From Vezdaea acicularis (Eukaryota), in contig JAPEUI010000106.1 of assembly GCA_026025075.1 (NCBI GenBank), forward strand, positions 1 to 53,243: a DNA stretch of 53,243 nucleotides, in the 5' to 3' direction. Below the pieces are notes generated by a model. That model saw nothing but the letters and a program-made list of their open reading frames with translations. It did not search any database and was not told where the DNA came from. The position numbers and the translations under genes are program-made. Positions 29,124-35,526 of the stretch are shown piece by piece. The first letter of the stretch is position 1. Each line of letters starts with the position of its first letter.

Positions 29124-30516
29124 ATGTCCCTCCCCATCACCACGGCCACCCTTCACCGCACTCGCTTCGTCCTCATCTCCGACACACACAACCACACTTT
29201 CCCGTTACCAGCGGGCGACGTACTGATTCATGCCGGCGACCTTACGAACCAAGGCACCCTTCCAGAACTCACAAAGACAATCAACTGGCTAGATTCTCTC
29301 CCTGGCTACGAGGCCAAGATAGTCATTGCCGGTCCGCTCATTCCCCCCTCCGACTCTTCCCTCTCCTTTCTAATTTTCCTTCGCCCATTCCCTTCTTCAT
29401 TTCATTCAACCTTTCCATTCTCGTTCCAAATCTCTGCTCCATCAAAGAAGCTCCATAGCTAACATCAGCGTAGGGAACCACGATATAACCCTCTCCCCCT
29501 CTTTCTACGCCGAGCACGGTCTAACCTTCCATAACCAATCCCCGCAATCCCCCACCGCCTGTCGCGCAGTGCTCTCCGCTGCTAGCTCCATCACCTACCT
29601 CCAGCACGAAGCCACCACTATCACGCTCACAAGAGCAGAAGGCCCACGCACTCGTTTTAGCATATTTGGCTCCCCGTACGTGCCGCAGACGGGGCACTGG
29701 GCCTTTGGGTATAAGAGCGCGGCTGAAGCAAGAGACTTGTGGGGGAGTGTCCCACTTGGAACAGATATCGTCGTGACACATGGGCCTGCGAAGTGGCATT
29801 TGGACGCTGCAGACGGTGGGGCAGGAAAGGGATGCGAGGCGCTACGGGAAGCGCTATGGAGGATACGGCCTAGGATGAGTGTATGTGGGCATGTACATGA
29901 AGGCCGTGGCGTACAGGTCGTGGACTGGGACTTGGCATGCACGAATGTAAAGTTTAAGGAGACAGAGACAAGGACTGTTCAGGGGGTCAGAGGGGGAAAG
30001 AACGGGATGTATGAGAAGTTTGATTTTACGACCAGGGGGTTGGGACTTGATAATGATGGGGGAGTTGGACCAGGGTCTATGGAGACAAAGCTTGTGGATC
30101 AGACACAGAGCCAGGTGTCGGAGGAACAAGCAGGACATCAGCCTGTTGTTGGCTCTGTCCTCAGCCCGTCTCCTACGATCTCGTATGCGCCCAGCTCGAC
30201 TGCAGACTCTGCGACGCCAGGGAAGATCTATCCTGCACCTCTACGACCCGACCTGTCTCCTCTCCGGTCACCAAAAACGCTGTCCTCCCCAGGTGATGCC
30301 CCAGCAGTCGAGCCGTGTTTCTCGACAGTAGGGCAAGGTGGCTATCCCTCGAATCGGTGCGATATGGCAGCATTGGAGGAGCGGATGGGAAGAAGGCAAA
30401 CGGTGCTTGTTAATGCGAGCATGATGAAGACGAGCTGGCCCTTTAAGGGGCGTTTCAACGGGGCTGTGGTCGTGGATCTGGACTTGCCAGTTTGGGAGGA
30501 GCAGCTGGGAGCTTGA
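29124..30516 (+). CDS. Calcineurin-like metallophosphoesterase (MPPED1/2-like; 2 exons)
   Basis: ISDTH, HAGD, IAG|NHD (joined across intron 29332-29473), VTHGP and CGHVHEGRG motifs. Confidence 0.9.
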
Positions 30517-30996: not shown

Positions 30997-32178
30997 CTAC
31001 TTCATCTTAGCCGCCTCATCCAATTTGCTCAAAACGCCGTTGACCATGACGACTAGATCTTTTCGTTTCTGACGGATCTCCGGATCGCCACCAGTATCGA
31101 CTGCGTCCAACTTGAAGAGGATGTCGCTGAGGATGGTTTCGCTGATGCGCTTGTGCTCAAAATCTCGCTTTGCGGGGTCGGTAGGGGGGTGGCTCGTATA
31201 TTGAATGCACTCAGGTAGAAATTTAACGTTGAAGCGTGAAGAGAGATCGTCAATTGTTTCGGACGCTGTTTTCGGAGCCGTAGGGGATGGTGCCCGAGAA
31301 GAAGATCTTGATGATCCCCCCCTAGACGAGTCTTGAGGCACCTCGAGATTCGGTGCCGCTGCACCCGCCGTATTTGCGCTCGACTTCTTCTTTTTCTTGT
31401 TGCGGTTCCGGTTTCTTTTCCGCTTGACAGGCGCATCACCCTGGTCTGTACCGAACTCGTCTCCATCGCTGCCTGATCCGTCTTCTTCTGAGCCTTCCTC
31501 AACTTCAGCCACCACGATCGAATCCGTTTTCAAACCCATGTCTCGGCAGCTTCGGCTGTCATCTCTCAAATTGCTACCTTTGTAAAAGAGTTGTATTCGT
31601 CGAAGATTCGATACTGAGATTTCTGATCCAAATCTCTCTCGTAAATCACCAACCTTGAGGACTCGATCATCGATGGCATATTTGGGGAAGTGGAGAGGAA
31701 AATTGACGCCGTTATGCTGGACGAGGACAATGTCGTCTTCGGATAGTGGAACTTTGCGAGACTGTGAGACATGCTGATCTTTGTGAAGGTCACCCGATAC
31801 ATCTCGATGATCCACGTCGTCCTCAGTGATATATTCGTAATCCGCGCTCGTGACCTTAGGCATCTCTTCGGAGGATCCAAAGGGTGAATATGGACCGCCT
31901 CGCCACAGGTTTCTCCATCCTGCACTCATTGATACGAAAAGGACCGCAAGAACGGTGAGAAGTGCCACGGGGAATAATTGAGAGTTCTCTTGAGAAGAGG
32001 AGCTTATCAACGACTCCACCGAGTGTCTTGTAGATTGTAGTAGGAGCAGCCAGACGTCGCTAAATCTATCGATGAATGTTGTGGGGGGTTTGGTTGTTGA
32101 GATTTGTGGAAGGTATGCCTTGATCGTATCTAAATAGGACGATACGGTGGCAGATATAGAGGAGCTAGAGAGCGCCAC
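30997..32178 (-). CDS. BAG-family Hsp70 co-chaperone: N-terminal TM segment, ubiquitin-like domain and BAG domain. Start uncertain (GTG 32178 versus ATG 31929)
   Basis: C-terminal BAG (EHKRISETILSDILFKLDAVDTGGDPEIRQKRKDLV...LSKLD), UBL-like segment (FPLHFPKYAIDD..LKVGDLR...LFYKGSNLRDD), basic NLS-like run KRKRNRNRNKKKKK, and hydrophobic LFPVALLTVLAVLFVS just before the first Met. Confidence 0.88.
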   Translation of the reverse strand: MALSSSSISATVSSYLDTIKAYLPQISTTKPPTTFIDRFSDVWLLLLQSTRHSVESLISSSSQENSQLFPVALLTVLAVLFVSMSAGWRNLWRGGPYSPFGSSEEMPKVTSADYEYITEDDVDHRDVSGDLHKDQHVSQSRKVPLSEDDIVLVQHNGVNFPLHFPKYAIDDRVLKVGDLRERFGSEISVSNLRRIQLFYKGSNLRDDSRSCRDMGLKTDSIVVAEVEEGSEEDGSGSDGDEFGTDQGDAPVKRKRNRNRNKKKKKSSANTAGAAAPNLEVPQDSSRGGSSRSSSRAPSPTAPKTASETIDDLSSRFNVKFLPECIQYTSHPPTDPAKRDFEHKRISETILSDILFKLDAVDTGGDPEIRQKRKDLVVMVNGVLSKLDEAAKMK

Positions 32179-33782
32179 GGTGAATGCAATGCCCTGACAG
32201 CCCTCAAAAACGAGGACTCCGGCCGCACAGAAGGTGGTCGAGGACTGCCGAATGACCGAGACTAGACCAGAATGACCAGGAAGATTCCAAAAGGCTGCAG
32301 GGTACCAGTGCGTTCACACTTAGGTTCTTGGTACAGTCAGGTCCAGCATGTGGCTATGGTGAGTCGTGTTACACTGGACGGTTCACAGCCTAGAAAGCGC
32401 TGACCAGAAAAGCTCACCGTATCCACGAAGCGAACGCTCGGTGCACAGCGATGCCTAATCCCAACGAACGTGACGAGGATCGATTCATATCAAAACTTTA
32501 AATTTTCTTTCGGGCTTTTGCAGATTAAAAGGGCTAGCTCCTCCCAAGAACTCTTGGTAGCCAAACTCACACATGTGTCACGATGTTATTTCCCAGATTG
32601 TTCCTCAGGACTTGGAACGATGGACCTCCGCGGCCATAGAAGACACAAATATGACCAGAACTGATGAAATAAATTACTGTGTTAGCAGCAGTGCCGTTCG
32701 ATAGATACCGGGCGCGCAGGATTCAAGATTGTCTATTCTCTAGGTTTCGTGGTTCACGTTGCGTACGCGGATCCGAGGCGAGTCAAGATTGGAGACATAC
32801 AAGATGTCAGGATCATATTCGTCCTGAATGGATTACTTAAGCCTTCGTTGGAGCGTACAGTCATAAATATGGCGTTTGCCTATTGAGTTCTATTCGCCTG
32901 CCGAAAGCTTGACCGAAGTCTGCTTTACCAGGGTTCAAGATAGGCTCAGCTCTGAGAGCCGGGTAGTTGCAGCTTCAAAGAACCCATTGCGCCCGCTCAA
33001 TGCCAACCATTCCCCTTTCTTCACAGTCCCCAAAGTGCCGGGGCTGACCCGATTAGCTGAAATTGCATAATGGTTTTGGAAGTCTTGAAATCTTGAGGTG
33101 TGTACTGTGCAGTGATTGGCCGGGGGGTCTCACCAATCAGGGAACAGTAGTCCGGTACTGACTAGCGAGAGTCTCATTGAATCGCGCCGACTATTATCAG
33201 TAGGCACGTCGACTCCTTTAAGCCTGGCTCCCACAATTCCTCCACTCCGATGTAGAGAACAGTACCTTCGGCCTCAAAAACGTACTCATAGAGCCACTGC
33301 ATGCTGTGGCGCTTCCCGACTAGCCTCCGTCGACCATTCTCTTCACATGAGACCGCTCACATTACCAAGGAGGAAAGACGGGTAGACGCTGCGATCAACC
33401 ACCGACGCTCCCACCCCACATGGCCTCTCCGTGATCATCCAGTACGCTTTCTGTCGCGGGACCGATCGATACGAGACGTGTCTTTATTCGAATTCGCCGT
33501 GTCCAAACTTTGCTTTGGGGGGGGAACCGGTTGTTATTGCCAAGTCGAGGGTGTGACGACTTGCGCCATAAAATAATCTGGAGAGTCGCCGTGTTGTTGA
33601 CATTAGTATATTTCCTGCATATTACCGTCATCTAAAAGCATAGGCGATTTGCTCAGCGACAATAAGCACACTTTGCAGAAATCACTTCCGAGACGATTGC
33701 TAAAGGTGCTCTGGTACGTGCCATCTATCAACCAGTTTCGACCAATTCCGAAAGCGGTCGCTCTATCTCTCGGTCCTCTAGA

Positions 33783-35526
33783 ATGGCTACTATCTCTCAA
33801 TCGCATGCATCAGGAGCGCTGACACCACCAAGGAGCCCAGAGGCTGGGCAAAGGCCTTGGGATCTTCCTGGTACAAAGAATCAAGATGTACGTTGGCTAT
33901 TCATTGGTTCATGAATCTTCATTGTCAAGTTTCGCTAGTTCGGGGATGCAATTTAGCCCTACTGGTGATTGCGAACTTCTGCTAACGATTCAATAGCTGA
34001 GAACTGCTTCGAACTCACAAGTAGATTACAATAACTCGTCAGCTTCAAGACCAGATTACTCGCAGCGTTACCCTCTTTCTCACCAAACCAATGGATCAGC
34101 GCTAAATCAACGTCCCTCTAGATCGGAGCTCTCGCAGCGTGGAGCAGACTATTCTGATTCGACATTCCTTCAACCTAAGCAGGTAGCTGCTTTAGCTCAT
34201 AAAGGCAGCAACATTAGCCGTACTGGTAGTGAGCCAGATAGCCTCCTAGATTTGTACGGATCCAATTCTGCAAACCGAAGTGGGGTAAGCAGCATGGATT
34301 ATGGAGAGCGGAAAGCACCCAATGGCAATGGATACAGTAATAGCGAGGATGATCCTGAATCCTCAAGGTGGATTCACAGGGATAAGTTAGCTCGAATCGA
34401 GAGTCGAGAGCTTCAAGAAGCGGGCATACATATTGGGCGTGAAAGTCGGTCAGCCAGTCGGCAGACGGGAAGAAAAGATCGACCTCCATTCGAGTTACAG
34501 GACGGCAGCAACGATGCTAATAGCGCTGGTGCGCGAGAAGACAAACGTCGGCGTCTAGCCTCGCCCATTGTGATGGACGAGACCGAGGAAGCACCAATGA
34601 CATTTGACCTCAGGTTACCAGAAGAAGCAGCTTCTGACCCATATGAAGAGAACCGCCAACTCCGGGGTCCCACAGCGAAGCAAAGCTACTCACGCATCCC
34701 CCTTTCTACCTCAAGTCCCATACCCGTTCCAGTGGATTATTTAGCAAGAGCTACTCCTTTACAGCGTAATGAAAGTAACGGCTGGGGTGAAGATGAGGGG
34801 ATCCCGTACGGGAAGACGAGGAGTAGGAGTCACAGCGTAGGCAGTCAGGTTCTACTTGACGATGAGGATACAAGCTCGCCAACACCCGGAGGATCGCCTT
34901 CCAAAGCAAGGATTGCGAAGAATGGAACGGCCTCGGGCAATCGTAAGGTCTCAGGCACACGTAATACATCTAACATACAAAAACCGCGTACTCGTTCAGG
35001 GACAAAAAGCCCCTCTCGACCTCCCACTAGAAGTGGTGAGACACCACCTGGAAGCGGAAGCAGCAGTAGGCGTCCTGAAGGTGATCCGCCATGGCTTGCG
35101 CATATGTACAAACCGGACCCTAGGTTACCACCAGATCAGCAGCTCATCCCAACACATGCGAAGAGGCTACAGCAGGAGCAATGGGAGCGTGAGGGTAAGC
35201 TTGGCTCGGCGTATGACCGAGACTTCCATCCTCTCGACCTTCACGAAGAAATGGATCCAAGCATCAGGCGGCAGGATGTCGATGAACCAGAACTAAAGCA
35301 AGGCGATCCGGAATGGCCCTTGAAGAGCCCAAGAAGCCCCGCTCTAAGTAACGGTCGGCCAGGCACTTCCGGCACAGACCATGGAGGTTACAACATAATG
35401 CCCGCCATCCAAAAAGCGCCCCCGGGCGCCCCGACTCCTAAGTCGCCCATGCAGCCAATAAGACTGGATGAGCCTGAAGAGGAGGAAAAGAAGAAAGGCG
35501 GCTGTCTCTGTTGCATAGTAATGTAA
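33783..35526 (+). CDS. teaR: Cell-end marker receptor TeaR/Mod5-like, prenylated (2 exons)
   Basis: Exon 1 MATISQSHASGALTPP..W joins via intron 33888-33996 in frame with ORF 34252. Conserved blocks WIHRDKLARIES.ELQ and RPEGDPPWLA.MYKPDPRLPPDQQ..PTHA; C-terminal CaaX KKKGGCLCCIVM. Confidence 0.85.

Follow-up and report, generated by a model that had tools for sequence, protein, structure and literature searches.

A probable UBL-BAG co-chaperone gene with a long open frame ahead of its first AUG

The minus strand of a 53,243-nucleotide (nt) stretch of the Vezdaea acicularis genome (contig JAPEUI010000106.1, positions 1 to 53,243; hereafter the window) contains a frame that is open from stop to stop between 32313 and 30997, a run of 438 codons. 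It is best explained as an intron-less gene for an Hsp70 co-chaperone of the BAG-1/Bag102 type, with a ubiquitin-like (UBL) domain, a basic linker and a BAG domain. Comparison with orthologous loci suggests that translation of this gene may begin at two in-frame codons, a GUG that would yield a membrane-anchored protein and a downstream AUG that would yield a soluble one.

The putative first start, GTG 32178-32176, is codon 46 of the open frame and is preceded by ttcacc and followed by gcg, which places A at -3 and G at +4 (surrounding sequence, ttcaccGTGgcg). The earliest in-frame ATG, 31929-31927, is codon 129 and lies 83 codons 3' of the GTG, in the context gtatca ATG a. Two in-frame stops bound the frame on its 5' side (TGA 32316-32314 and TAA 32322-32320). 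No in-frame ATG occurs between the upstream stop and 31929, and there is no ATG in any of the frames from 32346 to 31930 on this strand. The original prediction, drawn from the window sequence, had described this arrangement: a GTG at 32178 with A at -3 and G at +4, 83 codons ahead of the first ATG at 31929, and no further in-frame ATG before an upstream TGA. All of these elements are in place. Its count of 83 codons holds for the distance from GTG to ATG; as a measure of how far the frame is open before the first ATG it falls short, the true figure being 128 codons, 83 of them from the GTG onward. The closest ATG 5' of the GTG, ATG 32349, is 171 nt away and in frame, and begins an open reading frame (ORF) that reads MLDLTVPRT and then stops. 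This would be either an upstream ORF (uORF), if transcribed, or sequence 5' of the transcription start site (TSS).

Pfam recognized the BAG domain in the window protein (PF02179, E 2.4e-19, residues 309-389 of the form of 393 amino acids (aa)) and, at E<=0.1, gave no UBL match on the window protein itself. The UBL profile PF00240 matched 31 of 35 orthologues at E<=0.01, and a family profile search matched the Rad23 UBL together with BAG1, BAG3, BAG4 and BAG5 chains. An AlphaFold2 model of the window protein, built with 35 aligned sequences as input (mean predicted local distance difference test (pLDDT) score, 72.7), comprised a helix at residues 68-86, a beta-grasp fold at 149-226 (pLDDT 96-98), a disordered basic linker and a three-helix bundle at 305-391 (pLDDT 93-97). 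Its top Foldseek match in the Protein Data Bank (PDB) was Arabidopsis BAG1 (AtBAG1) in complex with Hsp70 (4hwi_B); NEDD8, ubiquitin and SUMO came next (template modelling (TM) score 0.8-0.87, root-mean-square deviation (rmsd) 1.4-2 A; for NEDD8, 0.84 and 1.5 A). Because of the orthologue matches to PF00240, the family profile and the predicted fold, we regard the originally predicted UBL-BAG architecture as correct, the BAG part being given directly by Pfam. By domain homology, the protein would be expected to bind the Hsp70 nucleotide-binding domain and to have nucleotide exchange activity. The basic cluster KRKRNRNRNKKKKK in the linker (family consensus KKKRNR..KKK.K) is possibly a nuclear localization signal (NLS) that both isoforms would carry.

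The first 83 residues of the long form would consist of a poorly conserved segment and one predicted transmembrane helix. The hydrophobic stretch LFPVALLTVLAVLFVS lies immediately N-terminal of Met84 and is the strongest hydrophobic peak of the protein, with a Kyte-Doolittle 19-residue mean of 2.36; the hydrophobic block is present in 35/35 aligned sequences. This peak and the modelled helix agree with the earlier proposal of a transmembrane-like helix directly followed by an ATG in weak context (tca ATG a). The predicted helix is flanked by an acidic residue on its N-terminal side and by Arg residues on its C-terminal side, and for this reason the positive-inside rule suggests a cytosolic C terminus.

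A near-cognate codon is conserved at the start of the extension

A protein search returned many Pezizomycotina homologues, several of which can be aligned to the window across the extension and the hydrophobic segment. DNA of 80 orthologous metagenome loci was collected, giving 55 distinct loci, or 56 with the window included. The aligned start was chosen by the residue pattern V/L/M/I-A-S/T/N/P, with the codon and the upstream bases outside that choice. The codon aligned to 32178 was near-cognate in 38 of the 56 distinct loci (GTG in 34, CTG in 4), and each of these 38 has A at -3, G at +4 and C at +5, with A or C at -4. Further 5' than -8, conservation drops to background information content. 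Elsewhere in the BAG orthologue genes, GTG accounts for just 28% of Val codons.

An in-frame ATG is absent between the upstream stop and the start in 33 of the 38 near-cognate loci; the five that have one do not share it with their closest relatives, where these were sampled. Several loci (L067, L077, L009, L015, L024, L058, L012 and L049) carry in-frame stops only 3-8 codons 5' of the start. As L067 has no AG between this stop and its GTG, no acceptor can join an upstream coding exon to the start in that locus. To group the loci with named classes, and for that use only, we built a quick IQ-TREE tree with named public proteins. The GTG loci group with Leotiomycetes, several Dothideomycetes orders and Teloschistales-like Lecanoromycetes, and the CTG loci fall in three separate places; placement of the window is unsure because of its long branch.

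The ratio of non-synonymous to synonymous substitution rates (dN/dS) in the extension ranged from 0.05 to 0.55, with a median of 0.29 across 18 orthologue pairs with finite estimates, compared with 0.03-0.27 in the downstream coding sequence (CDS). Over the 150 nt 5' of the start, read in the same frame, the median was 0.81 (15 finite pairs, from poor alignments). Judged by these ratios, the extension is under purifying selection across the orthologues. The original prediction had proposed this comparison, asking for a conserved extension with dN/dS below 1 that begins at near-cognate codons, and both features emerged from it.

ATG codons are avoided between the two starts

If ribosomes that pass the first start must get to the next AUG unhindered, an extension free of ATG is expected, and the orthologues come close to this state. 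Out of frame, the extensions contain 3 ATGs in 9,342 nt (0.32 per kb), against 375 in 35,997 nt (10.4 per kb) of the downstream CDS. Codon-shuffled extensions had a mean of 23.0 ATGs (standard deviation 4.1) and a minimum of 11 over 1000 shuffles. A subset of 21 loci, with one or two per clade, had 2 ATGs where shuffling gave a mean of 12.9, and none of 2000 shuffles reached so low a count. Met codons are likewise missing from the extensions (0, versus 1.1 per 100 codons downstream).

The avoidance extends to synonymous choices. Of 80 NAY codons (Asn, Asp, His and Tyr) that precede a codon beginning with G in the extensions, 3 end in T, compared with 75 of 285 before non-G codons (Fisher 2e-6) and 345 of 738 in the CDS. 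This scarcity of T-ending NAY codons makes ATG avoidance visible at synonymous sites. On the other side of the start, the nearest ATG lies at a median distance of 192 nt 5' (30 loci with sufficient upstream sequence). The Met that follows the helix, Met84 in the window, is invariant in 35/35 aligned sequences. Strong ATG depletion and an invariant Met together lend independent support to the idea of a membrane-anchored and a soluble isoform, which the original prediction had put forward on the basis of the two starts flanking the helix.

Lineages with AUG at the long-form start

Ten distinct loci have an ATG at or near the long-form start: three that are Eurotiales-like (L040, L045 and L079), a Leotiomycete-like subclade (L011, L034, L026, L031 and L033), L055 and L038. 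In nine of the ten, the ATG replaces the near-cognate codon; L038 also retains a GTG three codons downstream and is counted in both sets, whereas the other nine lie outside the near-cognate count. All ten ATGs have a pyrimidine at -3 and lack G at +4. Among the seven loci of these lineages that were scored, 1 out-of-frame ATG was found in 1,704 nt of extension. With ATG in weak context here and a near-cognate codon elsewhere, the first start would stay leaky either way.

The Leotiomycete-like ATG subclade has further features of its own. Its long form begins MS(L)IPRLPDSLQSY. In L026, L031 and L033 the old 'gacaagGTGGC' element is retained out of frame about 20-25 nt upstream and begins an ORF of 16-17 codons that overlaps the ATG, and these three loci have two introns in the N-terminal part. 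All five loci have a short uORF further 5': in L011 it is six codons long, and in the other four it encodes MYY, MFF or MFI before the stop.

Proposed dual initiation by leaky scanning and its alternatives

We propose that a single mRNA would be read from two in-frame starts. Part of the scanning ribosomes would initiate at GUG 32178, in its optimal context, to give a 393-aa (about 43 kDa) membrane-anchored protein whose N terminus would be lumenal and whose UBL-BAG part would face the cytosol or nucleoplasm, following the positive-inside rule and resembling Bag102 of Schizosaccharomyces pombe. Ribosomes that miss the GUG would find no AUG in any frame before AUG 31929, just past the helix, and initiation there would give a 310-aa (about 34 kDa) soluble UBL-BAG protein. 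We assign this full two-isoform model, dual initiation by leaky scanning at GUG 32178 and AUG 31929, a probability of about 0.7. Its first part, translation of the extension from GUG 32178, we consider highly probable. The comparison contributes a conserved start codon and context, coding constraint, ATG avoidance and an invariant downstream Met; from these we infer initiation at both sites, the ratio of the forms, their topology and their localization.

Several points weigh against this proposal or limit its reach. The case, for this locus and for every orthologue, is one of sequence comparison, and the predicted topology is read from the charge distribution only. Both dN/dS pairs that include the window are saturated, the window sequence being too diverged, so that for the window itself the argument from coding constraint is one by homology. 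The weak context of AUG 31929 means that its use, too, would be partial. In the start-codon count, choosing the start by regular expression conditions positions +1 to +8; where a locus offered two start candidates, the one agreeing with the alignment was taken, and nominal P values overstate independence because the loci are related. Loci cut by a contig edge (L021, L035, L037, L039 and L057) were left out of this count, and L027, L036, L063 and L072 were excluded from it, the candidate in L072 being acc CTG gct. The sample covers Pezizomycotina outside the Sordariomycetes.

Of the alternatives, the one in which GUG is the sole functionally relevant start, with one anchored protein and the AUG 31929 product a tolerated by-product, seems to us doubtful. 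Conservation of the extension, the helix and the GUG is compatible with it, and the Met could be conserved for structural reasons, as part of an MSxW juxtamembrane motif. However, avoidance of ATG in all frames, synonymous sites included, points to selection for ribosomes reaching the next AUG, and the lineages with AUG at the first start hold it in a weak context. Near-cognate initiation is also generally partial, so the AUG product should be abundant. Two isoforms could instead come from two transcripts, one beginning 5' of the extension and the other within it. Fungi commonly use alternative TSSs, but ATG depletion spans the whole extension from the GUG, which would be needless if a short mRNA began inside it, and the first start is suboptimal in every lineage; we hold this route to be improbable.

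An AUG supplied by an upstream exon is very unlikely. For the window, such splicing would link ATG 32349 (MLDLT) to an acceptor at 32245, 32203 or 32194, and three in-frame GT..AG combinations do exist. Yet the donor in each is GTACCA, which does not fit the fungal consensus GTRNGT, and a CTRAY branch motif is absent from all of them; the original prediction, which had named this splice as a way to refute it, had also judged the donor weak and the branch site unclear. The residues 5' of the GTG are not conserved, and the in-frame stops close to the start in orthologues, with L067 lacking any AG in between, speak against such an exon. Nor would it explain why only GTG or CTG is used or why the context is Kozak-like. 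Least probable of all is translation only from AUG 31929, or from 31863, where the recorded product begins, with the upstream frame an untranslated leader. At least 18 public orthologue gene models begin at the post-helix Met, and such models probably demand an ATG. Botrytis BcBAG1 has been described as cytoplasmic and 298 aa in length, but that localization came from an overexpressed GFP fusion of the annotated CDS (PMC6467101). Against an untranslated leader stand an open frame that is conserved across classes at dN/dS far below 1, the hydrophobic helix in 35/35 sequences, and the Eurotiales orthologues, which encode the same extension with an ATG start.

Relation to known systems and to existing gene models

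The clearest parallel to dual initiation is human BAG-1. BAG-1L starts at a CUG and the BAG-1 isoforms, which differ in localization, arise by leaky scanning (PMC6821271); the CUG start of the long isoform had been stated in the original prediction. Human BAG-1, like the fungal gene, has UBL and BAG domains. Its isoforms come from one mRNA with in-frame alternative starts of which the first is near-cognate, and its N-terminal extension alters localization, as would be the case for the fungal gene; BAG-1M and BAG-1S come from downstream AUGs (PMC6821271). The two systems differ in that the BAG-1L extension carries an NLS and the fungal one a predicted transmembrane helix. The human starts are described as lying in suboptimal contexts, together with an IRES (internal ribosome entry site) and a G-quadruplex, whereas the fungal near-cognate codon stands in an optimal context. 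The similarity between BAG-1L and the fungal extension is probably convergent.

For the anchored form, the closest likeness is S. pombe Bag102, which has an N-terminal transmembrane segment, resides at the nuclear and endoplasmic reticulum (ER) membrane with its C terminus cytosolic or nuclear, and has a soluble paralogue, Bag101 (PMC3907333). According to the published descriptions, it shares a single N-terminal transmembrane segment followed by (UBL and) BAG domains (PMC3907333). Bag102 is, however, a separate gene beside Bag101, whereas here one gene would give both forms; its transmembrane segment lies within the first 31 residues, whereas about 67 residues precede the helix here; and the portions of that paper drawn on here report no non-AUG start for it (PMC3907333). 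Within Pezizomycotina, the BAG gene has a counterpart in cpc-1, which has a conserved near-cognate N-terminal extension (Ivanov et al. 2017, PMC5487733). The two share the fungal subphylum, conserved near-cognate codons that have A at -3 and G at +4, an extension under purifying selection and the proposal of additional isoforms (PMC5487733). In cpc-1, several near-cognate codons are interleaved with uORFs, and no targeting role is assigned to the extension (PMC5487733). The BAG gene, unlike cpc-1, conserves only one GUG or CUG, its extension carries a predicted transmembrane anchor, and ATGs are clearly depleted between that codon and a conserved AUG.

The original prediction had also mentioned a Neurospora BAG-domain gene with a proposed non-AUG extension. 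This could not be confirmed: the text of Ivanov et al. 2017 and its ten supplements (PMC5487733) do not contain the word 'BAG'. Among the matches listed, a literature search turned up no report of non-AUG initiation for a BAG gene from a fungus, although a mention in Wei et al. 2013 is possible. Another fungal BAG protein that is membrane-anchored is Snl1 of Saccharomyces cerevisiae.

Botrytis cinerea BcBAG1 is described as having 298 aa and a cytoplasmic location, and its mutant shows ER-stress and unfolded protein response (UPR) phenotypes (PMC6467101). As the single UBL-BAG gene of a Leotiomycete, it probably belongs to the same orthologue family, in which Leotiomycete-like loci have 37-40% identity to the window protein. 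Its 298 cytoplasmic residues, as described, would correspond to the short form only (PMC6467101), and an ER-anchored isoform would directly rationalize the ER-stress and UPR phenotypes of the mutant (PMC6467101). Other Leotiomycete gene models, those of Coleophoma and Phlyctema, start at the same post-helix Met. In the Curvularia model P0089, a different predicted exon replaces the N terminus seen in the close relative L067. To arrive at an ATG, P0089, P0003, P0060 and P0071 rely on a different first exon or extend far upstream. P0071 carries the label Quercus suber; it clearly belongs to the fungal BAG family and is probably contamination.

Taken across at least three Pezizomycotina classes, we lean slightly towards a broader interpretation, in which the single BAG gene would act as a translational two-way switch with a deliberately leaky first start. 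In such a switch, the first codon would be a GUG or CUG whose context is perfect or, where evolution has repeatedly exchanged it, an AUG whose context is poor; initiation at it would add an anchor for the ER or nuclear envelope, and an ATG-free run would lead to the invariant AUG of the soluble form. If this is true, one gene covers the roles that fission yeast divides between Bag101 and Bag102, and the isoform ratio could follow start-codon stringency, for instance under stress. Studies of fungal BAG proteins, and most gene models, would then have covered half of the gene's output, and the parallel with the CUG of human BAG-1L would reflect either convergent or very old non-AUG control of BAG localization. 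Non-AUG starts that add targeting signals are known, but well-supported, deeply conserved fungal cases are few and annotation generally misses them. Here the comparative signal is unusually clean; it predicts that the UBL-BAG co-chaperone, the only one that many filamentous fungi have, also exists as a membrane-bound isoform, which bears on gene annotation and fungal proteostasis. Exchange of a near-cognate codon whose context is strong with an AUG whose context is weak would be a natural experiment on how start-site leakiness persists.

Leader block, RNA structure and other features of the locus

In the Leotiomycete-like loci, a block of about 35 nt 5' of the start, CAGCAGGGCT..AGGAAATCAGACAAG, is conserved at the nucleotide level. 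A similar leader motif is present in the window (GAGGGCTGTCAGGGC) and in Pleosporales-like loci (GGCAGGGCG). The block is non-coding, because an in-frame stop lies between it and the start in L009, L015 and L024; it could be a mark of the TSS or leader, or the acceptor of an intron in the 5' untranslated region. The mean minimum free energy (MFE) z score over +7..+66 was -0.86 (n=38), compared with -0.39 upstream and +0.22 internally, a weak signal that we did not use as evidence. The window's own fold, with z -1.88 and 12 of 200 shuffles equally good, hints weakly at a downstream hairpin and was likewise unused. A promoter and terminator scan applied bacterial consensus sequences, is uninformative on a fungal TSS and was disregarded.

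The features of the locus are listed in Table 1. Met106, the second in-frame AUG (31863), is not conserved among the orthologues.

Table 1. Observed and proposed features of the BAG locus in the window
Feature	Position	Strand	Basis
Upstream in-frame ATG and 9-codon ORF ending at TAA 32322-32320	32320..32349	-	Sequence
Immediate leader containing GAGGGCTGTCAGGGC	32179..32211	-	Resembles the nucleotide-level block in Leotiomycete-like orthologues
Proposed GUG initiation codon of the long isoform; ttcACC GUG Gcg	32176..32178	-	Orthologue alignment
N-terminal extension, 82 codons after the GUG, ATG-free in all frames	31930..32175	-	Conservation, dN/dS, ATG depletion
Predicted single transmembrane helix, residues 68-86, LFPVALLTVLAVLFVSMSA	31921..31977	-	Kyte-Doolittle, structure model, alignment
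First AUG (long-form Met84), where the 310-aa soluble isoform is proposed to start; tca AUG a, weak	31927..31929	-	
Second in-frame AUG, Met106 (MPKVTS)	31861..31863	-	Start of the recorded 288-aa product P0002
Ubiquitin-like (beta-grasp) domain, residues 149-226	31501..31734	-	Model, Foldseek, PF00240 in orthologues, Rad23 UBL
Basic cluster KRKRNRNRNKKKKK, residues 252-265, conserved, in disordered linker	31384..31425	-	Alignment
BAG domain, three-helix bundle, residues 305-391	31006..31266	-	PF02179 E about 2e-19; BAG3/4/5/1 chains; pLDDT 93-97
Stop codon TAG	30997..30999	-	Sequence

Open frames on the plus strand flank the gene on both sides. A 380-codon frame (29374-30516) converges on its 3' end and lies about 480 nt from the BAG stop. 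A 509-codon frame (33997-35526), rich in Ser, Pro and Arg, is divergent and lies about 1.7 kb from the BAG open frame; its end, ...GGCLCCIVM, looks like a C-terminal CaaX prenylation box.

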